A stretch of DNA of 64,000 bases, taken from assembly GCA_042568285.1 (NCBI GenBank), contig JBHPIX010000001.1, forward strand, positions 539 through 64,538, read 5' to 3'. The DNA is from Patescibacteria group bacterium. GTDB lineage: Bacteria > Patescibacteriota > Patescibacteriia > JAZDEU01. The notes below the pieces were generated by a model that worked only from the letters and a program-made list of their open reading frames with translations, was not told the origin of the DNA and made no database searches. The first letter of the stretch is position 1; each line of letters starts with the position of its first letter. This document shows positions 6,790 to 50,018 of this stretch, one piece after another. The translations under genes and the position numbers were made by a program.

Positions 6790-6850
6790 TTCCCCATTAT
6801 AGGAGGACTGAACATTGATAATTAAAGAGTAAAGGGATTTTTTTAAAACA

Positions 6851-6892
6851 GAACCCCACCCTGTCCCTCCCCTCAAAGGGGAGGGAACTATG
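6851..6892. repeat. GC-rich hairpin element copy (ccccaccctgtccctcccctc-aaa-ggggagggaactat)
   Basis: family member, upstream of pyrD-pyrK. Confidence 0.6.
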
Positions 6893-6902
6893 TGCCAAGG
6901 CA

Positions 6903-6957
6903 TAATTTTAAAAAAGGTCGCCGTCGCAAAGCTATGGCTGACAAAAGGAGAAATTAG
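6903..6957 (+). promoter_or_regulatory. conserved 5' leader motif ggtcgccgtcgcaaagctatggctgacaaaaggag + ATG
   Basis: identical 35-nt string also at 8745 and reverse at 6311. Confidence 0.45.
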
Positions 6958-8744: not shown

Positions 8745-8789
8745 AAAGGTCGCCGTCGCAAAAGCTATGGCGAACCAAAGGAGAAAGAA
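8745..8789 (+). promoter_or_regulatory. conserved 5' leader motif ggtcgccgtcgcaaaagctatggcgaaccaaaggag
   Basis: third forward copy. Confidence 0.45.
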
Positions 8790-23949: not shown

Positions 23950-24157
23950 AGTTTTTTATAATAGCTTAATTTTGGTTATTACTGGCGGAAAATATAAAGC
24001 CCGCCGCCAGCGATGGCTTACACCACCCATATTCCTTTCGGAATATGACCTGCTACAGGTGCTCTGACGACGAGCTTTCTATCCTGTAGCAGGTTTTTTT
24101 GCCATACCTCGCAGATTGACTACGAGGGTTAGGCAATTAAATTGTTAATGGTTTATG

Positions 24158-24410: not shown

Positions 24411-25616
24411 TTGCAAATTAAATTACTATTACCAAAAATTACTATGACCCCAGAGGAAAAATTTAACCAAGAGGTTTGGTGGATTTTACAACGATTAAAG
24501 TATCTGGAAATCTCCTCAAAAAAGGGAGAAATCATCAATTTTATTATTGAAGCCAGACCCATTAGTCCCCCTAACGAACCATCACCAAGAGCTCAAGAAA
24601 GTGCCATTTTAAAGTTAGAGGAATGGCAAGCCATAAAAATACTTAACCAAAAAGTTAAATACGATACTTATGGAAAAGATTTTATTTATAATTTAAAAAT
24701 TTTACAACCAAAATTTGATGAGTTTTACAAAAAATATGAGGAAAAGTTAGAAAAAAATAGCCCCAAAAGAAAATTTTCCACTGAACAAGGCAATAAAACA
24801 ATTGCACAAGAAAATTTGGATTATACAGATACAGCTTCACGAAGAGCGTGGGAGAAAAAGTGGGACGCACTACAAGCAATATGGACTAACTACGAGAGTA
24901 GCAATAAACCAGATAATCTATTCATTCCTATTGAGCGATTGGCAATTAAAAATAGAACTGCCTTTGAGATAGATGGAATAATTGGCGGATTTCAAAAAGA
25001 GGGTTGTTTTAAGGATTGGCACAGAGGAACGGAGAATTATGAAATTAAAGATATAAACCATAATCAATTTGCTGAAAATTATAAAAAAACGGAACTTATT
25101 TACACTAAGTTTGCTAAAATTTATCAAGAAAGGGTTGGCGATAAAATATCTATAAACAATCAAGAAGAAAAATTAGAAAAAAGTAATAAAGAAAACTACA
25201 AAAATAATACTTTTCTACAATCAATTCATCTGATTACAACCACCTTAGAACCATCTGATGTTATATTTTTAGTGCTTGATAGAAACTTTAATATACCAAC
25301 AAGGTGTGCTGTAAAAAATTATAAAGGAACTCCTGCATATATAAAAAAATTATATGACATTGCTTATATAGCAGATGTTCCAAACAAAAAGGTTATTTAT
25401 GACAAAAAGTTGGCTGATAATATAAACAATGGATTATTTAGAAAAAGACCTATAAAGAAATTTATGAGAACAAATAAATTTAAAAAACCAACACTTGTTC
25501 AAAAATCAGAAGATAAAAAAACTTTAGTATTAAAAAATGAAATTCAGGTGGAAACAATCCTTGTAAAAAATATTCCACTCCAATATCAATATCTTTATAA
25601 AGACAAAACCAAATAG
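24411..25616 (+). CDS. hypothetical protein (401 aa), mobile-element cargo
   Basis: no recognisable motif; followed by terminator. Confidence 0.4.
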   Translation: MQIKLLLPKITMTPEEKFNQEVWWILQRLKYLEISSKKGEIINFIIEARPISPPNEPSPRAQESAILKLEEWQAIKILNQKVKYDTYGKDFIYNLKILQPKFDEFYKKYEEKLEKNSPKRKFSTEQGNKTIAQENLDYTDTASRRAWEKKWDALQAIWTNYESSNKPDNLFIPIERLAIKNRTAFEIDGIIGGFQKEGCFKDWHRGTENYEIKDINHNQFAENYKKTELIYTKFAKIYQERVGDKISINNQEEKLEKSNKENYKNNTFLQSIHLITTTLEPSDVIFLVLDRNFNIPTRCAVKNYKGTPAYIKKLYDIAYIADVPNKKVIYDKKLADNINNGLFRKRPIKKFMRTNKFKKPTLVQKSEDKKTLVLKNEIQVETILVKNIPLQYQYLYKDKTK

Positions 25617-25656
25617 TATACGAATACTATCAGTGCAATAAAATAGTCTTATACTA

Positions 25657-25685
25657 AAACCCGCTTATCTAAGCGGGTTTTTTAT
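25657..25685 (+). terminator. rho-independent terminator (aaacccgcttatctaagcgggttttttat)
   Basis: 7-bp stem + T-run. Confidence 0.65.
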
Positions 25686-25710
25686 TTATTCTCCGTCTGG
25701 TCAGTGAGAT

Positions 25711-26016
25711 ATGATAATTGTAAAAGTAAAACAATTAACCAAACAAAATTATATGAGCAAAAAATTACAAAACAATTTAGAAGACAATGGAGTGTTCGCT
25801 AATTATGATTTAGGCTGTGCCGCCGCTTTAGTAACGGCGAATTTTGTGTTGCTCACTTTAGACAGGGAAAACCCACGCAAAGTGAGATTTATTTTTCGCC
25901 GTGAGGCGGGAATTGAAAAGGTCGCAGATGACTTTTGGTCTGATCGTCTTGAGCAAAAGTCCCGTTCGTTTTGGGATAACATTAAAAATCTCAAGAACAG
26001 ATTATATTCGGACTAA
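25711..26016 (+). CDS. hypothetical small protein
   Basis: ORF only; overlaps alternative-frame ORF 25901-26224. Confidence 0.25.
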   Translation: MIIVKVKQLTKQNYMSKKLQNNLEDNGVFANYDLGCAAALVTANFVLLTLDRENPRKVRFIFRREAGIEKVADDFWSDRLEQKSRSFWDNIKNLKNRLYSD

Positions 26017-26224
26017 TAAATTTATGTTGTCGGACGAGCAAATTACAAAATTTCAGACGCTTTATAAAAACCGCTTTGGCAAAGAAATTAGCCGAGAGGA
26101 AGCGTATAAACAGGGTGCGAAACTCATCCGACTTGTTGAGTTGATTTATAAACCAATAACAGAACACGAGTATCAAAAATTACAGGAACGCCGTCAAAAA
26201 ACAGGCGAACTAAACATTAACTAA
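25901..26224 (+). CDS. hypothetical small protein
   Basis: ORF only. Confidence 0.25.
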   Translation: MRRELKRSQMTFGLIVLSKSPVRFGITLKISRTDYIRTNKFMLSDEQITKFQTLYKNRFGKEISREEAYKQGAKLIRLVELIYKPITEHEYQKLQERRQKTGELNIN

Positions 26225-26239
26225 ATTAACATTAAAATT

Positions 26240-28375
26240 ATGCAAGAATTACAAACCATTACAATTAAAGAATATCTTACACGCAAAGGTATTGCCTTTA
26301 GTGAAAGCGGAAAAGAACTTATAACTCACTGCCTATTTAACGGCTGTGATGAAGATAGCCGAAACAATGAAGCTCACCTGTATTTTCAGGCGGAAACAGG
26401 TCAATATAATTGCAAAAAATGCGGAGAAACTGGCAATATAATAACGCTCGCAAGACATTTAGGTGATGATATTAAGGATGTTGCGATTGATAGTTTTTCG
26501 GCACATAAAAAAGGGGCAATAAATCAACTAAAAGCCACTTATATTAACCCTGATATAGTCGCAAAGTGCCATAAAGAACTCCCAGAGCGTATCAGACGAT
26601 ATTTAAACAAAAGAGGGCTTACAGACGATTTTATAAGCGAATTTAAGCTTGGATATGGACAGTTTTATAAAAAATCGTGGATTACAATCCCTATTACAGA
26701 TATTGACGGCAATGTTTTGTTTTTTAAACTAAGGCAAGATCCTGATGACAAAGATAATCCTCATAAGCTTAAAGCTTATCCATCGGGAAGCAAGGCGACT
26801 ATTTACGGATTAGAGATGTTAAAAAATAATGAGGACATGATAATGATTTGCGAGGGCGAATTTGATAGATTGATTTTGTTAAAAAATGGAATACCTGCCA
26901 TTACTTCTACGGCTGGAGCTGGAACTTTTAAAGAGGGCTGGCTGGAAAATTTAAGCAAGCTTGAAAAAATATATATTTGTTTTGATAAAGATGAGGCGGG
27001 AGAGAAAGGGGCGGAAAAAGTAATAAAGGTAATGGCGGGAAAATTGCCAGAGGTTGCTATATATAAAACTACTCTTCCTGAACGAATGAATGAAGGCAAA
27101 GATATAACGGATTATTTTATAAAATATAACGGTACACCAGATGAATTAATCTATAAACTTTCAAAGCAGGTGGCTGGCAAAAAGCCCATTGATGTTTCAA
27201 AATTTACACCGCTTAAACTTGATGATATTATAAAGATATTAGGGCTTACAATAAAAAAAGATGAAGAAAATAAAATCGTAACTTTTTTATGTGAATTATC
27301 CGCTTATACGGAAAGCTCTCAGTTTAATATTAGTTTCAATGCTCCCTCATCAACTGGTAAAAGTTATATACCAACAGAAATAGCTCAATTATTCCCCGAA
27401 AAAGATGTTAAAGAAATAGGTTATTGTTCTCCAACCGCCTTTTTTCACGATGTAGGGGCATTTAACAAAGAACGGGAAGGGTATGAGATAGATTTATCAA
27501 GGAAAATATTGATATTTTTAGATCAACCGCATACAATGCTTTTAGAGAGATTAAGACCTTTGCTTTCTCACGATAAAAAGGAAATGCACCTAAAAATTAC
27601 AGACAAATCTCAAAAATCAGGTTTGAGGACAAAAAATGTTTTTATAAAAGGTTATCCATCGGTTATTTTTTGCAGTGCGGGTCTAAAGATTGATGAACAG
27701 GAAAGCACAAGATTTTTATTGCTTTCTCCCCAAACCGACAAAGAAAAAATTAGGGAGTCAATAATAGAGAGAATAAAAAAGGAATCAGACAATAGTAGTT
27801 ATTCGCAATGGTTAAATAGCGACTCAAGCAGAATAATGTTAAAAGAAAGAATTGAAGCGATAAAAAAAGAAAAGATAGAGCATATTAAAATTAAGAATCC
27901 GAAAATTATTGAAGAAAAATTTTTTAAAGGCAGAGATATTCTTAAACCAAGACATCAGCGAGATGTTGGCAGGCTAATATCTTTAATAAAGTCCATTGCT
28001 TTGCTTAATCTCTGGTTTAGGGAGCGAGAGGATAACATCATTATTGCTAATGAGGAAGACATAAGCGAAGCCGTAAAATTATGGGATAAAATCTCTGAAA
28101 GCCAAGAGTATAATTTGCCCCCATATATTTATCAACTTTATCAAGAAGTGATTATAACCGCATGGCAGGATCTAAATAATGGGAAAAATGGGATAAAAAT
28201 TGGGGTAAGTAGAAAGGATATAATGAAAAAACATTTTAAAGTATATGGGCGTATGATTCAAGATTGGCAATTAAGGCAACAAATTATTCCAATGCTGGAA
28301 ACCGCGGGGCTTATAACTGAAGAGAGGGATTCACAAGACAAAAGAAAAACATTAATTTACCCCACCACCCTTTAA
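26240..28375 (+). CDS. mobile-element primase / replication protein: zinc-finger + Toprim + P-loop (SF3-like) C-terminal domain
   Basis: CxxC...CKKCG zinc ribbon, Toprim ICEGEFD...CFDKDEAGEKGA acidic motifs, NAPSSTGKSY Walker A. Confidence 0.65.
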   Translation: MQELQTITIKEYLTRKGIAFSESGKELITHCLFNGCDEDSRNNEAHLYFQAETGQYNCKKCGETGNIITLARHLGDDIKDVAIDSFSAHKKGAINQLKATYINPDIVAKCHKELPERIRRYLNKRGLTDDFISEFKLGYGQFYKKSWITIPITDIDGNVLFFKLRQDPDDKDNPHKLKAYPSGSKATIYGLEMLKNNEDMIMICEGEFDRLILLKNGIPAITSTAGAGTFKEGWLENLSKLEKIYICFDKDEAGEKGAEKVIKVMAGKLPEVAIYKTTLPERMNEGKDITDYFIKYNGTPDELIYKLSKQVAGKKPIDVSKFTPLKLDDIIKILGLTIKKDEENKIVTFLCELSAYTESSQFNISFNAPSSTGKSYIPTEIAQLFPEKDVKEIGYCSPTAFFHDVGAFNKEREGYEIDLSRKILIFLDQPHTMLLERLRPLLSHDKKEMHLKITDKSQKSGLRTKNVFIKGYPSVIFCSAGLKIDEQESTRFLLLSPQTDKEKIRESIIERIKKESDNSSYSQWLNSDSSRIMLKERIEAIKKEKIEHIKIKNPKIIEEKFFKGRDILKPRHQRDVGRLISLIKSIALLNLWFREREDNIIIANEEDISEAVKLWDKISESQEYNLPPYIYQLYQEVIITAWQDLNNGKNGIKIGVSRKDIMKKHFKVYGRMIQDWQLRQQIIPMLETAGLITEERDSQDKRKTLIYPTTL

Positions 28376-28573
28376 CTCACTATATTATAAATAGTGAGTG
28401 ATACTGGGGGGATGTGGGAATAAAATACTAAATTTATGATTGGGAAATACTGGAAAAACAGGAAGATTAAAAATGTCGTTTTAAAATGATATTTTTGGCT
28501 AAAATTAGCTAAAATATAGTAATTAAATACAAAATTTAGAAAGCTTAATCTCTAATTATTTCGGTAAAATTAT

Positions 28574-29170
28574 ATGAGCAAAATAATAAAAGAAAATTGC
28601 AAGGAATTAAGTATTTATAGGTTAAAAGAATGGGGTTATTTTGAGGCTGGCTGGCGTAAAAACGGGGGAATTACTTGGACAAGCCCGAATGGAGATAAAA
28701 GTAATATTAGTTTTGTAGTAGATTTGGGAGAACAAAATGATATGTTTATAGAGGTAGATTATAGGGTAAAAAATTGGGGAGAGGATGAATGGACTAATAT
28801 AAAACAGAAATATCCGATCGTTGCGACTACTTGCAATTATGGAGGCGTAAGATATTGGTTTGAATGTTCAATTTATCATAATGGTGTTTATTGCGGACGG
28901 AGAGTGGCTAAATTGTATTTGGGAGCAGGAAGCAAGTATTTTGCTTGCAGGCATTGCTATGGTTTAACTTATCGTTCCCGATTAGAAGGATTTGCTTATA
29001 CTGCTCCCTATTTAGACGAATACGCTGAGAAAACAAAAAGGTGGTATTATAACGGGAAGCCAACCAGACGGCATAGGCAGTATATAAAGAAAGAAAATAG
29101 TATGATGAGATATTGGGCAAGGTTTTTATTTAAGGCAAATGAAAGAATGGACGGGAGAATAAATAAATAA
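28574..29170 (+). CDS. hypothetical protein (198 aa, Cys/His-containing)
   Basis: ORF only. Confidence 0.3.
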   Translation: MSKIIKENCKELSIYRLKEWGYFEAGWRKNGGITWTSPNGDKSNISFVVDLGEQNDMFIEVDYRVKNWGEDEWTNIKQKYPIVATTCNYGGVRYWFECSIYHNGVYCGRRVAKLYLGAGSKYFACRHCYGLTYRSRLEGFAYTAPYLDEYAEKTKRWYYNGKPTRRHRQYIKKENSMMRYWARFLFKANERMDGRINK

Positions 29171-29239
29171 ATTAAATAAAATAAAATAAAATGAGGTGAA
29201 TGAGTTGGCTAAATGAATTTTATGGTGTATAATATAAAT

Positions 29240-29340
29240 GTTGACCCACACATAAACTAATAACCGAAGGTTTTTGTTTTGTCGCCCCAAATGGGCGGTT
29301 CTGCCGATAAATACTACCTTCGGGAAAGTGTGTTGGGTCA
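29240..29340. promoter_or_regulatory. 100-bp imperfect palindrome (gttgacccacaca ... tgtgttgggtcaac with nested ccgaaggt...accttcgg) directly upstream of the serine recombinase; candidate att / operator site
   Basis: read directly; large serine recombinase att sites are typically int-adjacent imperfect palindromes. Confidence 0.35.
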
Positions 29341-29384
29341 ACCAGAACCGTCCTTTTGAGTTTTTATACAACTCTAACAATATG

Positions 29385-31031
29385 AGACAAAATGACAATA
29401 AAATTAAATACTTCCTTTATGCTCGCAAATCTTCTGAAAGCGAAGACAGACAAATTCAATCTATCAAAGACCAAATTGATCGTTTAAATGATTTGGCGAA
29501 AGATTTGGATTTGGAAATAATAAAAACTTTTACAGAAGCGAAATCGGCTAAACAGCCAAACAATAGACCTATCTTTGACGATATGTTAAGCAGAATTGAA
29601 AAAGGAGATGCTGATGGGATATTGTGCTGGCAAATCAACCGCTTATCAAGAAATCCTGTTGATAGCGGTAAAATAAACTGGTTACTACAACAAGGAACTA
29701 TTAAAGCAATACAAACCATTGATAAACAATATCTCCCAGAAGATAATGTTTTGATGTTTAGCGTGGAAAGCGGAATGGCAAATCAGTTTATTTTGGATTT
29801 AAGAAAAAATACTATAAGAGGCTTGGAGAGCAAAATTCAAAAAGGTTGGTTTCCAAGCAGAGCTCCACAAGGTTATATAAATGATGTGATAGATAAAATT
29901 ATTATCAAAGACCCAGAAAGATTTAATTTAGTAAGAAAAATGTGGGATTTGATGTTGACTGGGAGTTATCAACCGCCCAAAATATTGGACATAGTTACTG
30001 ATGAATGGGGATATTTAACAAGGAAAACAAAAAGAGGCGGAGGCAAACCAATGTCAAAAAGTGAAATTTACAGAATATTTAATGACCCGTTTTATTATGG
30101 CTGTTTTAAATATAAAGACAAAATTTATAAAGGCAAGCATAATCCAATGATAACAGTTGATGAATATGAGAGGGTGCAGGAACTTTTAGGCAGAAAGGAT
30201 AAGCCAAAACAAAAGACCCACGAATTTGCTTTTACTGGGATTATTAGGTGCGGTAATTGCGGATGTTTAGTTACTGCCGAAGAAAAGAAAAAATTTATTA
30301 AAAGCACAAAAGAATATGCGACTTATACTTATTATCGTTGCACCAGAAGAAAAAGGGAAGTTAAATGCAAAGAGCCGACAATAAATTTAGATAATTTGCA
30401 AAATCAGATTATTAATGAAATTGATAAATATACTATTCCCCCAGAGTTTAGGGATTGGGCATTAGAGGTAATAAAAGGAAATAATGAAAAGGAAATAGAA
30501 ACTCGCAATCAAGCTTATGAAATGCTTAATAAAAAATATTTGGATTTACAAAAACAGTTAGATAATTTAACCAAATTGAGATTAAGAGATTTGATTAGTG
30601 ATGAGGAGTTTGTCAAAGAAAGAAAAGAATTGCAAAATCAAGTTATTAAAGTTAGAGAAAAATTAAATCAAAATCAAGATAGAGGGCAAAATTGGGTTGA
30701 TTTAATTGAAAGGGCTTTTAATTTTGCGACTTTGGCAAGAGAGAAATTTATAAACGGCGATTTACAGACTAAAAGAGAAATATTATCGGCATTAGGGCAA
30801 ACTTACACATTAAAGGGAGGTAAATTATACATTGAACCAATAGAATGGTTAGCTCCCATTTCTAACCTTGCTAAAATTGAACAAGATGAGGTTGTGAGGT
30901 TAGAACCAGCTAATTTTCGCTTAAATAAAGCAAAAAACAGGGCTTTAAACCCTGTAATTGCGAATTGGGGTGATAGATGGGATTTGAACCCACGACTTCC
31001 AGTACCACAAACTGGCGCTCTAACCAACTGA
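29385..31031 (+). CDS. large serine recombinase (resolvase/invertase catalytic domain + recombinase domain + zinc ribbon + coiled coil)
   Basis: YFLYARKSS catalytic Ser context, ...RLSRN, CGNCGC...CTRRK zinc ribbon; ORF has no stop until 31031, so the last ~22 codons are antisense to tRNA-His. Confidence 0.8.
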   Translation, partial: RQNDNKIKYFLYARKSSESEDRQIQSIKDQIDRLNDLAKDLDLEIIKTFTEAKSAKQPNNRPIFDDMLSRIEKGDADGILCWQINRLSRNPVDSGKINWLLQQGTIKAIQTIDKQYLPEDNVLMFSVESGMANQFILDLRKNTIRGLESKIQKGWFPSRAPQGYINDVIDKIIIKDPERFNLVRKMWDLMLTGSYQPPKILDIVTDEWGYLTRKTKRGGGKPMSKSEIYRIFNDPFYYGCFKYKDKIYKGKHNPMITVDEYERVQELLGRKDKPKQKTHEFAFTGIIRCGNCGCLVTAEEKKKFIKSTKEYATYTYYRCTRRKREVKCKEPTINLDNLQNQIINEIDKYTIPPEFRDWALEVIKGNNEKEIETRNQAYEMLNKKYLDLQKQLDNLTKLRLRDLISDEEFVKERKELQNQVIKVREKLNQNQDRGQNWVDLIERAFNFATLAREKFINGDLQTKREILSALGQTYTLKGGKLYIEPIEWLAPISNLAKIEQDEVVRLEPANFRLNKAKNRALNPVIANWGDRWDLNPRLPVPQTGALTN

Positions 31032-31043
31032 GCTACTATCACC
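30966..31043 (-). tRNA. tRNA-His (GTG) with extra 5' G and encoded CCA
   Basis: cloverleaf read by eye: GGTGATAG acceptor, anticodon loop TTGTGGT, T-arm GTGGGTTCAAATCCCAT. Confidence 0.8.
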
Positions 31044-31070
31044 ATAATTTAATTTTAGATTGTAAATAGT

Positions 31071-31141
31071 GTCTCCGGAGGGAATCGAACCCCCATAACC
31101 AGCTTAGAAGGCTGGTGTTCTATCCGTTGAACTACGGAGAC
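31071..31141 (-). tRNA. tRNA-Arg (TCT)
   Basis: GTCTCCG acceptor, anticodon loop CTTCTAA, T-arm GGGGGTTCGATTCCCTC. Confidence 0.8.
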
Positions 31142-31159
31142 ATATTATATAATAAATTT

Positions 31160-31323
31160 TATGGAATCGCCCGCTAATACAGCGGGCGCTCGCCGTGGTG
31201 GCGAGCGAACCCCCATAACCAGCTTAGAAGGTTTGCCTCTCCGTAGCTTTAGCGTAGGCGGGTTGGTGTTCTATCCTCCTTCGCTAAAGCTACGGCGGAC
31301 AAAGTCCGTTGAACTACGAGCGC
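31160..31323 (-). pseudogene. degenerate tRNA-Arg(TCT)-like sequence with three insertions (D-loop, anticodon stem, T-loop); 3' acceptor strand missing
   Basis: blocks GTAGTTCAACGGA, GGATAGAACACCA, CCTTCTAAGCTGGTTATGGGGGTTCG align to tRNA-Arg; inserts at 31236-31266 and 31281-31308 are mutually complementary over 14 nt. Confidence 0.45.
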
Positions 31324-31376
31324 ATTTTATAACTGTATATAAAACTTATCAGAAAAGATTGTGATTGTCAATTTAA

Positions 31377-34040
31377 TTAACTTCTCAACTTCTTTTCAGC
31401 CTCTTCAAATTTAATACTTAACAACCTTGAAATGCCGTCATCTCCCATTGAAACTCCGTATAATAATTTTGCTTTTTGCATAGTTGCCCTGTTATGAGTT
31501 ATAACAATAAATTGAGATTTATTGGATAATTCACCAATTATTTTAGCGAGATTATGTGAATTTGCTTCATCAAGAGCCGCGTCTACTTCATCCAAAACAA
31601 TAAATGGGGAAGGGTTATTTGAAATAATAGCGCAAAGTAGCGCGATCGCGGTAAGCGCTCTTTCACCTCCTGATAGCATATTTATACTGTTGATTTTTTT
31701 TCCAGGAGGCGCTGCTTGTATTTCAATGCCAAATACAACTTTTTGTTTGTAAATTTTTAATGGATTTTTTTCTTTTACATCATTATTTTCTGCGATTATA
31801 TTTTCTTCTGATTCTGATGTTTGTTGGTTTTCTTCAGTTTCTTTTTCATCTTCCGCAATTTTTATTAAATTAGATTTGCCACCACCGAATAGAAGACTAA
31901 AATATTTTTGAAATTCTTTATTTATGGCATTAAATGATTTTTCAAATTTATTTTTAATAGTTAAATCAAGTTCTTTAATAATTTTTTCAAGGGAAGTAAT
32001 CGCTTTGCTTAAGTCTGTTGTTTGTTCTGATAAAAAAGTAAACCTTTCTTTTGTCTCTGTATATTCAGTTTTTGTTTCAGGATCAATTCCTCCAATAAAT
32101 TCTAATTGTTCCTTTATTTTTTTAATTTGCGGAAGCAGGTTTTCAGGGTGTTCTATAAATTCAAAATTTTCGCTTGTAAGGTGAATTTCATCTTGTTTTA
32201 TTTCATACATTAAATCCTCTTTTTTTGTTGTGATTTTTGCCAGCTCAATTCTAATTGTATTAGTTTCTTCAGACAGCTTATTAAATTTCATTTGATGCTC
32301 CTGATATTGTTTTTGCAGTTCAAACAAGTTTTCTTTTTTTATTTCTTCTTTTATATTAAATTCGTTTATTGCATTTTTTAATTTATTGATTTTTTTGTCT
32401 AATTCTGAAATTTGATTTTCTATTTTTTGATTTTTCGCTTCTAATTCTTTTAATTTTTGTTGTTCATTAACTGGTTTTTCTTTAGCTTCGGAAATTTCAC
32501 GAAATAAATTTTTTTCTTCCGTTTCCATTTTTTGCAATGATTCTTTGAGAGTTTTCTCCCTTTCTTTTTTACCATTAATTTCTATTAGCAGTTTATTAAA
32601 CGAAGCAATAATGTTTTCTCTTTCTTGAATGGCGATTTTAACATTATCTTTGGCGATTAGAATTTTTTGGGCGTTTTGGTCATCTTTTGGGCATAATTCT
32701 TTTAGTATTTCGTTTAAATTTTTGTCTATTTGCTTCGCTTCTTTTATTATATTATTTAACTCTTCTATATCTTTGGCTGATTCTAATTTTTTTACTAAAT
32801 TTTGATAAGAATAATATATCAAAGAGATGCTTTTTTCTAATTCTTTATCGTTTATCTTTTTTACATTATTATTCGCCTGCAAGTTATCAAGGCATTCTTG
32901 CGCCTTTTGTTCATCTTTCGTCGCTTTTTCTTTTTTTTCGCTAATTTTTTTAATGTTTCTATCTAACCTTGAGATTATATCAGAAATTGATGATATGGAA
33001 TCTTCTATTTTTTCTTTTTCTTTTTTAATCTCGTCATATTTTTTTTCCAGCCAAATTAAATTTACTTTTCCAATTTTTTTATACTCTATTTCTTTATTTC
33101 CTTTTATAACAGCTTGTTGTCTTAATAGTAGATTTTTTTCATCAATTAAGATGTCATATTTATTTCTAAGAATATTAAATGCCTCTGATCGTGTTTCTTC
33201 CTCTTTTTGTTTTTGTATGGCTGTTTCTATTGCATGCAATTCTTTCTTTAACTCATTTTCTTGTTTAATTAGTATATCTAAGTCAGTTTGAACGGTTTCT
33301 TGATGAGAGTTTAATTGTTTTTTTATAGTTCCGTAATAATTTAGTTGTAATTTTCTTAGATTAGAAGTTAAGCTTTCTCGTTTTTCTAATTTTTTCATTT
33401 GCCTTGTAAGAGATTTTAGGCGAGGGTCAATTTCTTTAAGCAGAAGATCTGTTTGCGATAAATTATCATGAGCATTAATTAGTTTATTTAATGATTGATT
33501 TCTTTTAATTTGATATTCTTTAACTCCTGCGGCTTCATCAAAAAATTCTTTTCTTTCATTCGGAGGCGCAATGAGAAAATAGTCTATCATTCCTTGACCG
33601 ATAACGCTGTAAGTCCTTTGCCCAATTTGAGCTTTTGCTAAAAGCATTTGGATGTCTAACAGTCTAACTTTATTTTTATTAATTAAATATTCGCTTTCTC
33701 CATTTCTGTATAGTCGTCTTGTTAAAACAAGCTCAGAATAATCAATTGGCGCTTTGCCGCTTTCATTATTCAAATACAAAGAAACTTCGGCAAATCCAAG
33801 CCGAGTTTTTTTATCAGATCCAGCAAAAATAACATCTTCGCTTTTTTTCCCGCGTAGAGTTTTTAAGCTTTGTTCCCCGAGAACCCATCTTATTGCGTCT
33901 GCAATATTAGATTTGCCACTCCCATTAGGACCGACAATGGCTGTAATAGTATGCTCATCAGCTTTTTCTTTTGGGAATTGCAGGACAGTTTTTTCAGCAA
34001 ATGATTTGAATCCTTTTATTTCTATTTTCTGTAAATACAT
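31377..34040 (-). CDS. smc: SMC-family chromosome segregation ATPase (887 aa)
   Basis: N-terminal Walker A GPNGSGKSN, C-terminal signature LSGGERALTAIALL and Walker B FIVLDEVDAALD, long coiled coils. Confidence 0.85.
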   Translation of the reverse strand: MYLQKIEIKGFKSFAEKTVLQFPKEKADEHTITAIVGPNGSGKSNIADAIRWVLGEQSLKTLRGKKSEDVIFAGSDKKTRLGFAEVSLYLNNESGKAPIDYSELVLTRRLYRNGESEYLINKNKVRLLDIQMLLAKAQIGQRTYSVIGQGMIDYFLIAPPNERKEFFDEAAGVKEYQIKRNQSLNKLINAHDNLSQTDLLLKEIDPRLKSLTRQMKKLEKRESLTSNLRKLQLNYYGTIKKQLNSHQETVQTDLDILIKQENELKKELHAIETAIQKQKEEETRSEAFNILRNKYDILIDEKNLLLRQQAVIKGNKEIEYKKIGKVNLIWLEKKYDEIKKEKEKIEDSISSISDIISRLDRNIKKISEKKEKATKDEQKAQECLDNLQANNNVKKINDKELEKSISLIYYSYQNLVKKLESAKDIEELNNIIKEAKQIDKNLNEILKELCPKDDQNAQKILIAKDNVKIAIQERENIIASFNKLLIEINGKKEREKTLKESLQKMETEEKNLFREISEAKEKPVNEQQKLKELEAKNQKIENQISELDKKINKLKNAINEFNIKEEIKKENLFELQKQYQEHQMKFNKLSEETNTIRIELAKITTKKEDLMYEIKQDEIHLTSENFEFIEHPENLLPQIKKIKEQLEFIGGIDPETKTEYTETKERFTFLSEQTTDLSKAITSLEKIIKELDLTIKNKFEKSFNAINKEFQKYFSLLFGGGKSNLIKIAEDEKETEENQQTSESEENIIAENNDVKEKNPLKIYKQKVVFGIEIQAAPPGKKINSINMLSGGERALTAIALLCAIISNNPSPFIVLDEVDAALDEANSHNLAKIIGELSNKSQFIVITHNRATMQKAKLLYGVSMGDDGISRLLSIKFEEAEKKLRS

Positions 34041-34216: not shown

Positions 34217-34837
34217 ATGGCAATTGAAAGAGCTTTAATAAGCGTATCAGATAAAACAGGAATAGTGAAATTTGCAAAAGAGCTGATAGAGTTGACTGGA
34301 TGTGACATTATTTCAACAGGAGGGACAGCTGAAATTTTACTGGAGGATGGTATTCCAATAATTCCAATTAAAAATGTTTAAGGCAATCCAGAATCTTTTG
34401 GCGGAAGAATGAAAACTATTAGTTTTGAAGTTGAATCCGCTATTTTGTATAGACGCAACAATGAAATGGATGTTTCAGACGCTGATGCGTTAGGCATTAT
34501 GCCAATTGATATAGTTATATGCAATCTATATCCTTTTGAAAGAACTATCGCGCGTCCAGATTGCACATTTGAACAGGCAATTGAAAATATTGATATTGGC
34601 GGACCGACAATGTTGCGCGCCGCAGCTAAAAATTATCAGGATGTGGTTGTTGTTATAGATCCTTATGATTATTATACTATAATAAAAGAGTTGAGAGACC
34701 GAAAGGGAAGTATTTCCATTGAAACCAGAGAACAGTTAATGCTAAAAGTGTTTGCGCGAACAAAAAATTATGATACTGCGATTTATAATTATTTAAACCA
34801 ACAATATTTAAACCAAGAATTAGGGAATGCTTATTGA
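34217..34837 (+). pseudogene. purH: PurH N-terminal (IMP cyclohydrolase / MGS-like) domain gene interrupted by in-frame TAA at about 34379-34381
   Basis: [12 protein letters not shown]...STGGTA and GRMKTISFEV...IDIVICNLYPF...NIDIGGPTMLRAAAKN align across the stop to E. coli PurH residues 1-200. Confidence 0.5.
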
Positions 34838-35114: not shown

Positions 35115-38100
35115 CTATCCGTCTTGAGCCCGTCTTTTCCAAACCAAGACTCCCAGCACGACAGCTAAAATCCCAACCGCTATAGATAAAACCCACTGTA
35201 ATATTTTTTTTATGCCGATAGCGCGATCAGCGTCTTTTTGTAAATTTTCTATTGTTTGCGCCAGTTTTATTTCAGGCACTTCCTCAACTGTTTCTTGCTC
35301 AGAAATTTCATCTACATTTAAAGAAATTTCAATATCCTCTTCGCCTTCCAAATCTACGCCGATAACTTCTGTCTCCCATTCGCCGTCTTCGGGATCTTCA
35401 ACAACCACAATTGCTCCCATGCCGTCCTGCATGGGCTCGCCTGAATATTTTTTTCCAGACGGACTTATTAAAGCAAACTCAATAACTGGTTTGTCTTCAG
35501 CCATCGCTGGCGAGATATTCCAGAGCCTATCAGACTCTCTAAAGTGCTTTTTGTCATTCCGCGCTTGATGTCCGCCTAGGCTCGACTCCGCCTCGGATCG
35601 CCGAGTGCGAGACGGGATAGTCGAGACTGGCGGAATCCAGTTAGTTAATCTGGATTGCAAAATTTCTGGATCCCGCGTCAAGCGCGGGATGACATTCCCA
35701 GAATACTCTGATAGTAACGCGGACCCAAACCTCATAACCCCAGTTAAAATTTGCCTGCCCCCGCTTCTAACCGCCTCCGCTGTTTGGCGCGCAGTTTCTT
35801 CTACTCTCTCACCAGTTTCAATAATGGTTTTAGCGGCTTCTTCCGCTATATTTTCAGCTGTTTCAACAGCTTGCTCTGTTTTTTCCTGAATTGCGTCCCG
35901 CATCGCTTCGCCAGTTTGACTTGTCGCCTGTACTACAAATTTTTTTGTTTTCTTAACTCCTCTAACGAGAGTGGTCTTTGTTGTATTTGCTACTTGCCTA
36001 AAAATATTCACCATTTCATTGGATATTCTATCAGCTTCTCTTGTAAATTCATAAGCTAAATTACCTCCTTTTACAATAGCATTATCAATAGAAGCTCCCA
36101 ACGGTCTCATTGACTGATAAACTGATTCCAGATCAATAATCTCTTGGGTTCCCGGAATACGGATTACTGAATGGCAATCACCGATAGTGGCTTCGCACCA
36201 ATCACTCGCGGTATTATGATAAATTGCGAACATCTTTCCTTCTGAATATATACCGAAAATCGCCTTGCCATAAAGTCCAGCGATATTAATGCCGTCAGTC
36301 GCTAATTTTAATTTGTCATTAATATCTCTGGCGAAATCGCTAACTTTTTCAAAAACATCGCCAAAAATAGTTTCCTTGCCTAATAAACTGGCGCCCCAAT
36401 CTACTGCCGCGCCAGCTAATCCAAGCTGATCCATTAGCTTGCCAAAATTTGTGGTAGTATCAATTAATTGGTTGCCCATATTTTTGCTTTTATCAAAAAT
36501 ATTGTCATTATTGTAAACAAAATTTTTCTCTGCTATTAATGCTTCTCTGATTTGATTAATTTTTGTTTGATATCCATAATAAGGAACATCGCTATTTGGC
36601 ACAGCTCCAACAAATTTATTTTGATGCCATATAGCAACTTGATAATCAACCATTTGGTTAGAAACAGCTTCTTTAAAATTCGTCATAAAAGCTAATTTAT
36701 ATAAATTTTTATATTTATGTTTTACAGTCTTTTCTAATTCATCCATATAGCGCTTCAAACTTCCCTGCGAGTTTTCAAACGCCCTGTCAGCTTCCATTTT
36801 AAAATCCGCGATTTGCGCGGAACTTTCTATTCCCAAACTATTCAATACAGATTCCAAACTATGTCCTTCCAACTGTCCTCCTACTAATTCAGTAGCGGCA
36901 GTTAATTTATCCGCGACACCTCTTAAATTTACATTAAGTTTTCCTGACAAGCTATTTAATCTTTGGTGCGCGACAATCTTCGCTTTAAACAATAAGAACG
37001 TTCTCATCAACTGCCATGTCGCTTCTCCAAGAACATCCGCCATTTCTGTTCCTGCCTCAATAGTCGCAACTCCTAATTTTTCTATGGCAATAGAACTTTT
37101 TAATAAAGCGATTGCTTTTACTTTATTGCCCCCGTCCTTTTCTTCTTCTACGGAAATCATTAAGGTTCTATGCATATCATGCGGGCTAAAATTACCTTCC
37201 AGTCCAGGCACATATTTTTTATCATTTAATGGCATTATACTTCCATAAATATTGCTATACTCATTAATATATTCAATTACATTTTCTTCCATCGCGCATT
37301 TTTTTTCCCAGCAAAAATCAGACTTGCATTGCGAACTTTCAGAACATGCGTCGCCATTATTAAACAATAAACATTCTCTTCTTGTTGTGGCGCAGTCAGG
37401 ACATGAACAATCTTCATTATCCTGGCATTCTCCATCACCGCACCAAGTGTATCCTAGGGGTCTGCATACAGACTCTACGCAATTATTTGATGCGCAGTCT
37501 TGTTGCTCGTCACAACTTTGTCCGTTTTCTTTTTTAACTTCTTCTTCCTCTCGCTCTTCTGCACCTTCTTCCACTTTTAATTCATCTTCTACTCCATTCT
37601 CATCGTTCCCCTCTTGAGAGGGGTCAGGGGTGTGTTCTGTTTCAGCAGAAACACTTACCCTTAATTTTACACCTATAGCTTCAATTGTAGTGTAATGATA
37701 GAATTTAACTGTATTAGATCCAGCTTGAAAAAACTTTGTGGCGTCAATCCATTTATTTAAACCGCTTGCTTCTGTCACATTTTTTCCAAGCGAAGCATCA
37801 TAAACTTGTCCGTTTGACGATGAATATGGAGAAAATTCCCAAACTGTTTTATCATTCACTTTTACATATCCATTTTTTCCCATATATTTTTTAACATAGT
37901 TAGAACTGTTCTTAGCATAATGGGTAATTTCTACTTTGGTAAACCGGCTCGGAAGATTAACTGTCCATATATGAGGCGCGCGCGAAGCTGGAATAACTCC
38001 TCCGTCTTTCATTTCTCCACTTGATCCAAATGACATAGAATTTATTGCTGTAAATTCATCATCCTCGCACTGTCCGCAATCTTTTACGCAATCAACGCAT

Positions 38101-40034
38101 GTTTCTCCGCTATCGCAAAATGTGTCTCCACAATATGTTTCAGAGCTTCTGCATTTACTGTGAACACAATGGTTATTTTTGCATTCTGAATTAGCTCCGC
38201 ATGTTTCTCCAGTATCTTTCAATGAACATGCTCCACAATCAGAAGTACAGCTTGAACAAGACTCTCCTCTATCGCAAAATGTATCGCCGCAATATGTTTC
38301 AGAGCTTCTGCATTTGCCATGAACACAATGCCAATTTTTACATTCCCCGCTATTAACGCAATCAGAACCGTCTGGCTTACTGCATAATCCGCAATCATCA
38401 GAACAATCATCGCATGTTTCACCTGTATCGCAGTTACTGTCTCCGCAGTATGTTGAAGAGCTTCTGCATTTTCCGTGAACACAATAATTGTTCGCGCATT
38501 CTGAATTAGCGTTGCATACAGCTCCATCAATTTTTAATGAACATGACCCGCAGTCGGAAGTACAGCTTGAACAAGATTCGTCGCTATCGCAAAATGTATC
38601 CCCGCAATATGTAGAATTTTCGCGACATATATTATGAACACAATAATAATCCCCGCAATCAATCTGCGAAAGGCATTGCTCTCCTATTCCAGCTCGGCAG
38701 TTTCCGCAGTCCTGCTGGCACACATCGCACTCTTCGCCATTGTCGCAATGACCGTCTCCGCAGTATGGGGATGAAGATCTGCACCTGCTATGCAAACAAT
38801 ATGGACTTTCGCACTCTGAATTGTTTGAGCAAACCTCGCCGTCTGCTTTTAAATTTAATTCGCAATAATAATTAGAAGTATCGCATAAATAACCGCTATC
38901 GCAATGATCATTTATTGAGCAACATGTTTTGCCAGCTTCGCAACATACATAATTTGCGCAATTTTCTGATTTGCAAGTTGAAGATGCATAGCAGACTTCT
39001 CCAATTTCTTTTCTTGTATCCACTTTTTCAACGCAATATTTATTATAATGGCATTCATATCCAGTTGAACAATCATCATCGTCATAACAGCACGTTCCAG
39101 AATCACAACATTTTCCATTGTTGCAGTATCCACTAGCGCATTCTTCTGAAGATGCGCAGACAGAACCATTTACTTTTAAGTATGTATACTCGCATAAATA
39201 ATTTGAATTGCATAAACCATTATTGCCACAATCATTATCAGTTTCGCAACACCATCCAACGCCTCCGCAGCATATTTTTTTTGAATAATCGCTTCCAAGC
39301 ACATAATCACAAATACTTGATTCGCATTCGCTATATTGAGAGCAAGCTTCGCCATTTGCCTTTTTAACTTTATCTTCGCAATAATAATTATCATTGCAAA
39401 TAGTATTCAATCCAAAAAGATCTCCGCAGTCGTTGCTTGTCTTGCAACATTCTTTGCCAGCTTCGCAACAAGTTCTATGCTGGCAATTATCTGATACGCA
39501 GTCTGTGTTAGAGCTACAACTCCCGCCATTCGCGGTCGTAGCGTCTGATTCGCAATAGCATCCGCCGGATTCGCCATATAGGGTGCAAGTAGCCGCGTAT
39601 GGACAATGGTCATTATTGAAACAGCATACGCTTCCCGTTTTACAGCATATATTATTACTGCAATTTCCTGATTCACATTCTGCGTCTTCGCCTGAATCGC
39701 ATGTCATAGAATTTATTACACTGCCGGCGCAATCTTCTGGACAAATGGTATATCCTTCATCGCAATAGCCGTCTCCGCAAAAATAATAATGATCTCTGCA
39801 AATATTATGGATGCAATAATCCGCATCGCAGTCCCATGATGTTGTACAGCTTTCACCCAGAGCGTTCGTCGCAAAAGAAACATTCGCGAACAGCGACATT
39901 GCGAATATTGCAAAAACAAAAACAGCGATAAACTTTAATGAACTAAAAGTACAATCGCTGTTTGCAGATAACTGTTTTACGAAATGCCACAATTTTTCGT
40001 AAAATGTTTGTGGCGTTTTGATAGAGTGTTTCAT
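35115..40034 (-). CDS. giant (1639 aa) Cys-rich modular surface protein with N-terminal signal/TM and C-terminal TM anchor
   Basis: dozens of ~45-aa Cys-rich repeats (GxxCxxxxxCxSxxC...CC), a second repeat class (YCGDxxCDxGExCxxCxxDCGxC), ~700-aa helical region, C-terminal hydrophobic helix. Confidence 0.6.
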   Translation of the reverse strand: MKHSIKTPQTFYEKLWHFVKQLSANSDCTFSSLKFIAVFVFAIFAMSLFANVSFATNALGESCTTSWDCDADYCIHNICRDHYYFCGDGYCDEGYTICPEDCAGSVINSMTCDSGEDAECESGNCSNNICCKTGSVCCFNNDHCPYAATCTLYGESGGCYCESDATTANGGSCSSNTDCVSDNCQHRTCCEAGKECCKTSNDCGDLFGLNTICNDNYYCEDKVKKANGEACSQYSECESSICDYVLGSDYSKKICCGGVGWCCETDNDCGNNGLCNSNYLCEYTYLKVNGSVCASSEECASGYCNNGKCCDSGTCCYDDDDCSTGYECHYNKYCVEKVDTRKEIGEVCYASSTCKSENCANYVCCEAGKTCCSINDHCDSGYLCDTSNYYCELNLKADGEVCSNNSECESPYCLHSRCRSSSPYCGDGHCDNGEECDVCQQDCGNCRAGIGEQCLSQIDCGDYYCVHNICRENSTYCGDTFCDSDESCSSCTSDCGSCSLKIDGAVCNANSECANNYCVHGKCRSSSTYCGDSNCDTGETCDDCSDDCGLCSKPDGSDCVNSGECKNWHCVHGKCRSSETYCGDTFCDRGESCSSCTSDCGACSLKDTGETCGANSECKNNHCVHSKCRSSETYCGDTFCDSGETCVDCVKDCGQCEDDEFTAINSMSFGSSGEMKDGGVIPASRAPHIWTVNLPSRFTKVEITHYAKNSSNYVKKYMGKNGYVKVNDKTVWEFSPYSSSNGQVYDASLGKNVTEASGLNKWIDATKFFQAGSNTVKFYHYTTIEAIGVKLRVSVSAETEHTPDPSQEGNDENGVEDELKVEEGAEEREEEEVKKENGQSCDEQQDCASNNCVESVCRPLGYTWCGDGECQDNEDCSCPDCATTRRECLLFNNGDACSESSQCKSDFCWEKKCAMEENVIEYINEYSNIYGSIMPLNDKKYVPGLEGNFSPHDMHRTLMISVEEEKDGGNKVKAIALLKSSIAIEKLGVATIEAGTEMADVLGEATWQLMRTFLLFKAKIVAHQRLNSLSGKLNVNLRGVADKLTAATELVGGQLEGHSLESVLNSLGIESSAQIADFKMEADRAFENSQGSLKRYMDELEKTVKHKYKNLYKLAFMTNFKEAVSNQMVDYQVAIWHQNKFVGAVPNSDVPYYGYQTKINQIREALIAEKNFVYNNDNIFDKSKNMGNQLIDTTTNFGKLMDQLGLAGAAVDWGASLLGKETIFGDVFEKVSDFARDINDKLKLATDGINIAGLYGKAIFGIYSEGKMFAIYHNTASDWCEATIGDCHSVIRIPGTQEIIDLESVYQSMRPLGASIDNAIVKGGNLAYEFTREADRISNEMVNIFRQVANTTKTTLVRGVKKTKKFVVQATSQTGEAMRDAIQEKTEQAVETAENIAEEAAKTIIETGERVEETARQTAEAVRSGGRQILTGVMRFGSALLSEYSGNVIPRLTRDPEILQSRLTNWIPPVSTIPSRTRRSEAESSLGGHQARNDKKHFRESDRLWNISPAMAEDKPVIEFALISPSGKKYSGEPMQDGMGAIVVVEDPEDGEWETEVIGVDLEGEEDIEISLNVDEISEQETVEEVPEIKLAQTIENLQKDADRAIGIKKILQWVLSIAVGILAVVLGVLVWKRRAQDG
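35552..35694. repeat. R-family composite repeat inserted in-frame inside the giant protein CDS
   Basis: translated as VIPRLTRDPE...NWIPPVSTIPSRTRRSEAESSLGGHQ, the same peptide as in the MiaB-like gene. Confidence 0.8.
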
Positions 40035-43112: not shown

Positions 43113-43186
43113 TTTTTTCTCCTTCTTTTAAATTATTTGGATTAACAACGTTTATAACGTTGCCTCTGATTTTTTCAAAGAGCTAT

Positions 43187-43250
43187 GTGCCGGGAAGAGG
43201 ATTCTTGCCCTGTCGTATGACAGGGTGAACCTCCACGCTCATTCGCACTA
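43187..43250 (-). pseudogene. 3' fragment of tRNA-Leu duplicated immediately 3' of the intact gene, carrying a 26-nt hairpin insertion in the T-loop
   Basis: tgtgccgggaagagga[ttcttgccctgtcgtatgacagggtg]aacctccacgc matches the tRNA-Leu 3' end. Confidence 0.5.
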
Positions 43251-43269
43251 CAAAAACGAAATTCCTATG

Positions 43270-43351
43270 TGCCGGGAAGAGGACTTGAACCTCCACGCCC
43301 GAAGGCACGTGCTCCTAAGGCACGCGTGTCTGCCAATTTCACCATCCCGGC
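43270..43351 (-). tRNA. tRNA-Leu (TAG) with long variable arm
   Basis: GCCGGGATGGTGAAATTGG..., anticodon loop CTTAGGA, variable arm GTGCCTTCGGGCGTGGA, T-arm GGTTCAAGTCC. Confidence 0.8.
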
Positions 43352-49747: not shown

Positions 49748-49751
49748 AAAA

Positions 49752-49813
49752 TGTCATCCCGCGCTTGACGCGGGATCCATGAATTTAGATCCCGCGTCAA
49801 GCGCGGGATGACA
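49752..49813. repeat. R-family double hairpin abutting the stop codon of the preceding gene
   Basis: tgtcatcccgcgcttgacgcgggatcc...gatcccgcgtcaagcgcgggatgaca. Confidence 0.7.
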
Positions 49814-50018
49814 AAAAGGATTTTTATTGCATTTTGAGCGAAACGTCGCCTTTTGTCATATACCAAAAAGCGTCTAAATGGGCGCTTTTTTTGTGCCATT
49901 GACAAATTATCCTTAATATGCTAATTTATAATATTGCTAATTGACAACTAAACAACCGTCCGATTTCGGACTATATTAACAATTTTTTGCCAAATATGAT
50001 GGCGAGGAGGAAGAAAAG

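Follow-up and report, generated by a model that had tools for sequence, protein, structure and literature searches.

A tRNA-Arg(UCU)-derived element with three hairpin inserts as a candidate structured 5′ leader RNA of a Patescibacteria tRNA-Arg/tRNA-His operon

Non-tRNA segments of tRNA precursors have been given a regulatory role in Escherichia coli, where the 3′ external transcribed spacer of leuZ (3′ETS-leuZ) and internal tRNA spacers reportedly act as sponges of small RNAs (sRNAs). Mimicry of tRNA occurs in tmRNA and in YrlA/Y-RNA-like RNAs, which carry an acceptor/T-arm mimic, and the Rickettsia palindromic elements (RPE) are palindromic repeats tolerated in frame inside genes. Interrupted tRNA genes are represented by the multi-intron, split and tri-split tRNAs of Archaea (Fujishima et al. 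2009, PMC2650326, as cited in PMC10714607), and the GIY-YIG endonuclease SegB is encoded in the tRNA cluster of phage T4 (PMC2330249). Here we analyzed a 64-kb stretch of Patescibacteria DNA (contig JBHPIX010000001.1; ‘the window’ refers to this whole stretch), in which an element next to smc, hereafter the Arg-like element, resembles the neighboring tRNA-Arg(TCT) gene in separate blocks that are interrupted by three inserts, I1, I2 and I3. To judge by these blocks it is a tRNA-Arg-derived sequence, and we regard it as on balance probable, if only just, that it is a conserved structured RNA element, derived from tRNA-Arg(UCU) and constituting the 5′ leader of the tRNA-Arg/tRNA-His operon in these Patescibacteria (candidate phyla radiation, CPR). 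The element and its operon are laid out as follows, with insert boundaries ambiguous by 2–3 nt:

31377–34040, minus strand: smc
31343–31371, minus strand: promoter-like sequence, a putative promoter, with TTGACA (31366–31371), a 17-nt spacer and TAAGTT (31343–31348)
31163–31323, minus strand: Arg-like element, between smc and tRNA-Arg(TCT)
31317–31323, minus strand: 5′ heptamer GCGCTCG at the position of the acceptor 5′ strand (tRNA-Arg counterpart GTCTCCG)
31306–31316, minus strand: tRNA-like block 1, TAGTTCAACGG, positions 8–19, D-stem 5′ strand and D-loop, identical to tRNA-Arg 31125–31135
31275–31305, minus strand: insert I1, 31 nt, in the D-loop, with hairpin A and the 14-mer CCGTAGCTTTAGCG
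31264–31274, minus strand: tRNA-like block 2, ATAGAACACCA, end of the D-loop, D-stem 3′ strand, position 26 and the first 3 nt of the anticodon stem
31233–31263, minus strand: 31-nt insert I2, splitting the anticodon-stem 5′ strand between tRNA positions 29 and 31 and containing CGCTAAAGCTACGG
31206–31232, minus strand: tRNA-like block 3, ACCTTCTAAGCTGGTTATGGGGGTTCG, anticodon loop CTTCTAA through the first 4 nt of the T-loop
31168–31205, minus strand: 38-nt T-loop insert I3, made up of hairpins C and D, each of 8 bp and side by side
31187–31207, minus strand: hairpin C, CGCTCGCC-ACCAC-GGCGAGCG
31168–31188, minus strand: hairpin D, CGCCCGCT-GTATT-AGCGGGCG
31163–31167, minus strand: ATTCC, what is left of the 3′ side of the T-loop and T-stem, where tRNA homology stops (ATTCCCT in the relative L007, see below)
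31069–31141, minus strand: genuine tRNA-Arg(TCT) (ARAGORN; Rfam tRNA, 71.6 bits)
30966–31042, minus strand: genuine tRNA-His(GTG) with encoded G-1 and CCA (ARAGORN, Rfam)
30937–30955: terminator hairpin of the minus-strand operon, after tRNA-His

The block-wise likeness to tRNA-Arg(TCT) described in the first-pass annotation was borne out on the minus strand, with 31305–31318 identical to tRNA-Arg 31123–31136 (14/14), 31264–31276 to 31113–31125 (13/13), and 31206–31231 to 31086–31111 (26/26, blastn E 6e-9); the identical blocks cover tRNA positions 8–19, 21–29 and 31–57. As had been noted, the anticodon loop CTTCTAA is intact and the 5′ heptamer differs from the tRNA-Arg acceptor strand; block 3 comprises the anticodon loop, the anticodon-stem 3′ strand, the variable loop, the T-stem 5′ strand and the first four T-loop nucleotides. 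The lengths reported for the anticodon-stem insert (31 nt) and the double-hairpin T-loop insert (~38 nt) agree with ours, while the D-loop insert measures 31 nt instead of 28 nt, within boundaries ambiguous by 2–3 nt. Hairpin A of I1 (CGGAC-TTT-GTCCG) is partly built from D-loop bases. The two 14-mers CCGTAGCTTTAGCG and CGCTAAAGCTACGG, at 31241–31254 and 31282–31295, are exactly complementary as claimed and have no other exact copy in the window, and the complementarity of I1 and I2 extends to 21 nt at 90%. The 3′ acceptor strand had been described as missing, and none indeed follows ATTCC, 21 nt downstream of which tRNA-Arg(TCT) starts; overlooked, however, was CGAGCGC (31186–31192), a segment of hairpin C in I3 that is exactly complementary to the 5′ heptamer. 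This hairpin also contains, in its 5′ arm and its loop (31195–31199), the motif GCTCGCC-A-CCA, in the form of an acceptor strand, a discriminator and CCA, followed by the inverted complement; the motif is invariant in L007 and may mimic a CCA end or derive from the 3′ end of a tRNA that an inverted duplication folded back on itself.

The placement of the window in Patescibacteria rests on its SMC protein, whose named relatives are Buchananbacteria and Falkowbacteria. The one close SMC relative, P0002 (79% identity), is encoded on contig L007 (JGI sample 3300009105), and the comparison with orthologous loci that had been proposed was possible there: an orthologous element at L007:12712–12875 carries all three inserts at the same positions, in the same order of smc, element, tRNA-Arg(TCT) and tRNA-His, the last followed by a terminator and a SocA_Panacea gene. 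Between the two genomes the element differs by 13 substitutions and one indel in 161 nt (92% identity), compared with 54% identity at the four-fold degenerate sites of the adjacent smc. The tRNA-like blocks and heptamer together show one difference in 56 nt (heptamer 7/7, block 1 11/11, block 2 11/11 and block 3 26/27 identical), I1 has six substitutions and one indel in 31 nt, I2 has four substitutions in 31 nt, and I3 is identical at 36/38 positions with both differences in the loop of hairpin D. In hairpins A, C and D no stem position varies, the changes falling in the loops. The real tRNA-Arg changed four of its seven acceptor pairs between the genomes, the heptamer none, and tRNA-His diverged visibly more than the Arg-like element. 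Upstream, the TTGACA and TAAGTT hexamers and their 17-nt spacing are identical in L007, the leader between them and the element has a 10-nt indel, and the spacer 3′ of the element is hardly alignable. By this two-genome comparison the Arg-like element is conserved far above the neutral level, which shows purifying selection on it since the two known host lineages split. Patescibacteria genomes are tiny and have little spare DNA; therefore a 160-nt element kept through saturating divergence is likely functional.

I2 is flanked by a 4-nt direct repeat, A(A/G)CC, whose two copies both read AACC in the window and AGCC in L007. This parallel A/G difference could be due to chance under AT-biased change, to an independent target duplication in each lineage, or to structural constraint. 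Its use as evidence for independent site-specific insertion or for a structural switch was considered, but with 13 mostly AT-biased substitutions chance may account for it.

The two inserts had been expected to pair in a transcript, and the I1:I2 helix does dominate the predicted fold. The 176-nt RNA of the window reaches −77.4 kcal/mol (z = −5.8 versus shuffles) and the L007 RNA −77.8 kcal/mol (z = −3.25). In the proposed structure a helix of ~20 bp would be flanked by hairpins A, C and D, with block 2 as its apical loop in the predicted fold, and the segment running from anticodon loop to T-loop, 100% identical to the tRNA, would be left weakly structured. A cloverleaf would be impossible because I1 and I2 are predicted to form this helix; compared with the minimum-energy fold, in which I1 and I2 pair, a fold forced to form the D stem is less stable by 18 kcal/mol for the window sequence and by 8 kcal/mol for that of L007. 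Between the two genomes there are two wobble-compatible and two to four disruptive changes; one I2 substitution in L007 turns a U-A into a U-G pair, and the two wobble-compatible changes (G-U pairs) suit the minus-strand RNA only. There is no covariation evidence because the homologues number only two.

The Arg-like element is not a tRNA gene. ARAGORN and the Rfam model RF00005 call only the neighboring tRNA-Arg and tRNA-His, and permissive Rfam scans (E ≤ 5–10) returned no tRNA match on the element, only noise such as microRNA hairpins. After removal of the three inserts ARAGORN called nothing at default settings on the copy of either genome and rejected both at relaxed settings as well, a single partial call, of 65 nt without a proper acceptor, appearing for the L007 copy only at -ps90 -i. 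The insert-free L007 copy has perfect D and anticodon arms and four of five T-stem pairs, and that of the window has an A30-C40 mismatch and only two or three T-stem pairs; lacking an acceptor 3′ strand, neither becomes a complete tRNA. No such strand follows the T-arm remnant in the window or in L007, and the 3′ tRNA piece ATTCCCYCCGAGCGC has no match in the window with up to three mismatches. CGAGCGC in I3 was tried as the acceptor 3′ strand and rejected, since this pairing lies ~6 kcal/mol above the minimum-energy fold and gives a non-canonical T arm with a 4-nt linker; the partners are invariant. A coding role was likewise rejected, as the 67-aa plus-strand open reading frame (ORF) of the window is broken in L007, and no ORF in the element is conserved between the two.

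Being so little changed in the distant relative, the Arg-like element is probably a working non-coding RNA, neither tRNA nor junk. It would have originated from an additional tRNA-Arg copy, placed first in the operon, which was interrupted by GC-rich hairpin modules and lost its T-arm end and 3′ acceptor strand; I1 would stem from a dispersed hairpin in reverse orientation, with I2 as its inverted partner and I3 as a unique pair of 8-bp hairpins. Transcription from TTGACA-17-TAAGTT, which begins 6 nt past the smc stop codon, would cover the element, tRNA-Arg and tRNA-His in turn; the gap separating the element from tRNA-Arg showed neither a promoter nor a terminator, and a terminator follows tRNA-His. 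Cleavage by RNase P at the 5′ end of tRNA-Arg would then free a leader RNA of ~190 nt with two stable hairpins at its 3′ end, which could persist thanks to these terminal hairpins; the relative encodes the RNase P protein subunit (rnpA). As to its role, our guess, by analogy with the E. coli external transcribed spacers, is a stable regulatory or decoy RNA derived from the tRNA precursor, with a cis role in expressing or processing the downstream tRNAs as a close alternative.

Across all genome, metagenome and viral searches the homologues of the element amount to the window and L007 copies. An SMC-protein scan of genome contigs gave six loci, none of which (0/6) has the element, and tRNAs follow smc in the Falkowbacteria contig L006 alone; in L001, L008 and L009 (SMC ~60% identity) a terminator or other genes come after smc. 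Metagenome DNA-pattern scans with a conserved 25-mer and with a two-gap tRNA-block pattern, and a viral sequence scan, returned no match. An nhmmer profile run over 215 kb of related loci recovered the two orthologues and no further homologue, though it weakly picked up the leader-hairpin sites described below. A literature search turned up no account of small inserts in CPR tRNA genes.

The origin of the inserts was traced in part to palindromic modules of the host genome. I1 is a reverse-oriented match to a dispersed family of leader hairpins (best match 22/25 with one gap; 0/150 shuffles equal), with consensus GGTCGCCGTCGC-AAA-GCTATGGCTGAC:

3953–3998, plus strand: leader hairpin; I1-like copy found by pattern
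6320–6355, minus strand: leader hairpin; I1-like copy at 6322–6347 found by alignment
6917–6950, plus strand: leader hairpin; I1-like copy at 6921–6946 found by alignment
8745–8785, plus strand: leader hairpin; I1-like copy found by pattern
gene 3958: amidohydrolase with leader hairpin
gene 5174, minus strand: metallophosphoesterase with leader hairpin
gene 6958: DHODH/Dus-like gene with leader hairpin
gene 8715: DHDPS-like gene with leader hairpin

These hairpins lie directly upstream of AAAGGAG ribosome-binding sites, all in the same orientation relative to the gene, and match no Rfam family; a cis-regulatory motif of the 5′ untranslated region or a mobile module that carries a ribosome-binding site is possible. 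Their core is common to both I1 and I2. On its own I2 has no significant match elsewhere in the window (26/150 shuffles) and can best be seen as an inverted counterpart to I1, and hairpins C and D of I3 have no further copy in the 64-kb window and 14 related loci. Several families of GC-rich palindromic modules occur in the window genome, such as the hairpin GTCATCCCGCGCTTGACGCGGGATCC (tGTCATCCCGC(G/A)CTTGA(C/T)GCGGGATcc), with 12 copies in the window and two in L007:

window, 6691, 12350, 13553, 16781, 16816, 35670, 41583, 49756, 49789, 51630, 53397 and 57106: GTCATCCCGCGCTTGACGCGGGATCC copies
L007, 5900 and 5954: GTCATCCCGCGCTTGACGCGGGATCC copies

The GTCATCCCGCGCTTGACGCGGGATCC modules often form inverted pairs and show compensatory stem variants; a weak Rfam WsnRNA46 match at 49733–49828 coincides with one such pair. 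A composite GC-rich palindromic element of ~190 nt (51629–51809) is located, in frame, within the linker encoded by a MiaB-like radical-SAM gene (ORF 51282–52787), adding 66 residues relative to L007:8030–9337, which has a different GC-rich element at the same linker. The GC-rich palindromic modules are insertion-polymorphic between the window genome and its relative.

Other hairpin-bearing tRNA fragments allow the fate of such sequences to be compared. The tRNA-Leu of the window (43269–43351) has a partial 3′ copy, from variable arm to 3′ end, 30 nt downstream (43185–43238, minus strand), with the hairpin CCCTGTCATACGACAGGG in its T-loop (43208–43225) and GC-rich elements resembling miniature inverted-repeat transposable elements (MITEs) upstream of the intact gene. 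In contig L010 of the same relative (Memo protein 79% identical) tRNA-Leu is 96% identical, but the partial copy, its hairpin and the upstream MITE-like elements are gone or unrecognisable; therefore non-functional remnants do not outlast this divergence, and the Arg-like element did. A near-identical CCCTGTCATACGACAGGG hairpin lies in the D-loop of tRNA-Val fragments in the Falkowbacteria contigs L006 and L012, and in L006 the leader of the tRNA-Val/tRNA-Ile operon, which follows directly on smc, includes four tandem partial copies of the 5′ side of tRNA-Val and one of tRNA-Ile:

L006, 9074–9290 and 9381–9430: partial tRNA copies with GC hairpins in the D-loop
L012, 6074–6127: partial tRNA copy with a GC hairpin in the D-loop

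L012 (69% SMC identity) has one unit, in which ~28 of the first 30 nt (tRNA 5′ piece and hairpin) are identical, and its acceptor reads GGGTCGT versus GGACGAT in the functional tRNA-Val. The leader units of L006 end in GC hairpins followed by T runs and appear terminator-like. No fragment-plus-hairpin unit was present in L011 (86% SMC identity) or L014 (61%). Hairpin-bearing partial tRNA copies probably arise repeatedly via mobile-DNA activity and break repair, most of them being dispensable, and the Arg-like element is unusual among them in being retained.

The Val-Ile-Met-Phe-Pro tRNA cluster of L011 contains two GIY-YIG endonuclease ORFs, for which SegB in the T4 tRNA cluster (PMC2330249) offers a parallel. 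A 19-bp inverted duplication that includes the tRNA-Phe 3′ end lies just upstream of one of these ORFs, and a tRNA-like fragment with the hairpin GCGTAGCTCCGCCAAGGGCGGAGC is found upstream of tRNA-Met; the L011 coordinates of these features are 6325–6561, 6872–7126 and 6806–6860.

In the window, which is AT-rich (GC ~33%), an integrative element at 24411–31031 adjoins tRNA-His; it encodes a primase, a DUF5659 protein and a large serine recombinase, and is absent in L007:

26240–28375: primase gene of the integrative element
29274–31031: large serine recombinase gene, its ORF extending over the operon terminator and the 3′ half of tRNA-His, both on the other strand

Just beyond the first gene of the integrative element a full-length LOOT RNA (Rfam RF03000, 97.5 bits) is located at 24012–24135 on the minus strand. 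On the other side of smc, a 1639-aa ORF (35115–40034, minus strand) has no Pfam or PHROG match and a GC content of ~40%, above that of the window, and its 3′ part (35413–35795) holds several GC-rich palindromic modules. Beside it lies a 142-aa ORF (34409–34837, plus strand) with an MGS domain and only the first 60 AICARFT residues, probably a truncated purH.

Several observations weigh against a conserved leader RNA under selection at this locus. Homologues were found in two genomes only, and between these two sequences compensatory double changes occur in none of the 51 predicted pairs (0/51), two L007 substitutions break pairs of the I1:I2 helix, and substitutions are not significantly enriched at unpaired positions of the window’s predicted fold (Fisher p = 0.22). 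At ten of the 13 differing positions the window has A/T where L007 has G/C, which looks like slow AT-biased erosion, and the A/T changes weaken the anticodon-stem and T-stem remnants and the local hairpins of the window copy; to judge by this pattern, that copy may be slowly eroding. The GTCATCCCGCGCTTGACGCGGGATCC hairpins are nearly identical at non-orthologous sites of the window and L007, so that a family-level process other than selection at the locus may conserve hairpins. Moreover, the fragment-plus-hairpin leader units of the Falkowbacteria clade come and go among close relatives; such sporadic units can therefore be dispensable, and no universal class is claimed. Finally, the −10 hexamer TAAGTT is weak, and the promoter-like sequence is not listed by a consensus promoter scan.

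These points bear most directly on the explanation that the element is a non-functional tRNA-Arg pseudogene, disrupted by selfish palindromes or break repair and kept similar in the two genomes by some process other than selection at the locus, for instance lateral replacement, or gene conversion or concerted evolution among hairpin families and tRNA blocks, which we consider unlikely but worth serious attention. The erosion-like bias of the window differences, mostly from G/C to A/T, is what it predicts, and it also accommodates the missing covariation, the spread of insertion-polymorphic palindromic modules throughout the genome, the unstable maintenance of similar units at tRNA-Leu and in the L006 clade, and the GIY-YIG genes in the tRNA cluster of L011, such endonucleases being a known source of rearrangement (SegB in T4, PMC2330249). 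Such a relic is nevertheless difficult to reconcile with 92% identity against 54% at neutral sites, and the tRNA-Leu remnant, which serves as a control, did decay. Hairpins C and D and the heptamer are unique and have no donor for gene conversion, yet their stems are invariant; the 11-nt blocks between non-homologous inserts would be too short for RecA-type conversion from tRNA-Arg; and the diverged spacers on either side argue against a recent transfer of the segment. Of the decaying, palindrome-colonised paralogue proposed by the first-pass annotation, the tRNA-Arg origin and the family membership of I1 accordingly stand, and the decay does not fit the level of identity. A leader that acts purely in cis, as attenuator, insulator or processing platform for read-through coming from smc or the leader promoter or for RNase P or other RNases, and that has no role as a free RNA, has a distinctly lower probability in our view. 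In keeping with it, the element shares its strand with smc, is preceded by the conserved promoter-like sequence and followed by the tRNAs, and no terminator separates smc from the tRNAs; the terminator-like ends (GC hairpin and T run) of the L006 leader units would suit it as well, and the heptamer either pairs with CGAGCGC or leaves CGAGCGC to hairpin C, a possible switch with a difference of ~6 kcal/mol. Here, however, no U tract follows hairpins C and D and no terminator was found there, no ligand or protein partner is evident, and the related operons of L011 and L014 work without such a leader.

Two further explanations are closer to being dismissed. An att-site relic of the adjacent integrative element, as had been suggested, is refuted because L007 has the same Arg-like element without an integrase or primase, none lying within 10 kb upstream or in the remaining 1 kb downstream. 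A broader version, in which the 21-nt inverted repeat with its 13-bp spacer (55 bp) acts at the DNA level as a recombinase or repressor site, is very improbable, although serine recombinase and primase genes adjoin tRNA-His and the size and symmetry of the repeat are like those of serine-integrase att sites. The integrase abuts tRNA-His and not the Arg-like element, and in L007 the repeat is less symmetric as DNA and carries a U-G pair that is acceptable in RNA only. The intron-like or split tRNA of the first-pass annotation fared worse still: a real tRNA from which archaeal-type or novel splicing takes out three intervening sequences, or the 5′ portion of a split tRNA completed in trans, is scarcely credible. 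The sites of the inserts (D-loop after G19, anticodon stem 29–31 and T-loop 55–58) do resemble non-canonical intron positions of Thermoproteales tRNAs, and the L007 copy regains its D and anticodon arms and most of its T stem when the inserts are taken out. Against this stand the rejection of the insert-masked sequences by ARAGORN, the mismatched anticodon stem and poor T stem of the window copy, the lack of a 3′ acceptor strand in either genome and of a 3′ piece in the window, and a cloverleaf 8–18 kcal/mol worse than the predicted fold. No bulge-helix-bulge is evident by inspection, since I1 and I2 are predicted to pair with each other instead of with the exon sequences at their borders. Moreover, a normal tRNA-Arg(TCT) follows after 21 nt, and no tRNA splicing endonuclease is known from bacteria.

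A more ambitious version of the leader-RNA reading, in which the Arg-like element, excised as a stable RNA from the start of the tRNA operon, would be the first of a class of tRNA-mimicking leader RNAs in Patescibacteria that combine decoy and antisense functions, is improbable in our estimate. The exposed sequence from anticodon to T-loop would serve as a decoy for a tRNA-binding protein or nuclease, and the I1 module would be antisense to the leader hairpins of genes 3958, 5174, 6958 and 8715; transcription of the tRNA operon could thereby be coupled to the translation of that cluster, with I2 as an internal anti-seed.

If the leader is a stable RNA, a tRNA gene would have been converted into a different RNA by the insertion of palindromic elements, and the concept of functional tRNA-precursor spacers would reach beyond enterobacteria. 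For the annotation of CPR genomes, in-frame palindromic modules, hairpin-bearing tRNA fragments and endonuclease-carrying tRNA clusters matter too, as such inserts inflate ORFs and yield tRNA-like sequences that standard tools silently skip.

Compared with described systems, the Arg-like element shares with tmRNA and YrlA/Y-RNA the retention of tRNA sequence or shape elements for a non-decoding purpose, but its acceptor is missing, its predicted fold is not tRNA-like, and it has no Rfam match to either family. Like the multi-intron and split tRNAs of Archaea, it is interrupted in the D-loop, anticodon stem and T-loop, and long GC-rich complementary segments adjoin its pieces; unlike them, it belongs to a bacterium, yields no tRNA on insert removal, joins two inserts through its complementary segments, and has a normal isoacceptor next door. 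The short GC-rich palindromes of the window, to one family of which I1 belongs, resemble RPE and the repetitive extragenic palindromic (REP)/MITE elements in being dispersed, insertion-polymorphic and tolerated in genes, a likeness in behavior; they differ in that I3 is single-copy and the inserts of the Arg-like element are orthologous and conserved. With the partial tRNA copies left by integrative elements and homing endonucleases it has in common a partial duplicate beside an intact gene and the vicinity of GIY-YIG genes or integrases to tRNAs, whereas it retains the 5′ two-thirds instead of the usual 3′ end, has nothing between the copies, is integrase-free in L007, and is conserved above the neutral level. 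From the tRNA-precursor spacer sRNAs of E. coli, the Arg-like element differs as a much larger (~165–190 nt), tRNA-derived putative 5′ leader with three hairpin inserts; like them, it is a non-tRNA segment of a tRNA operon that could be released by tRNA processing enzymes and is potentially stable.

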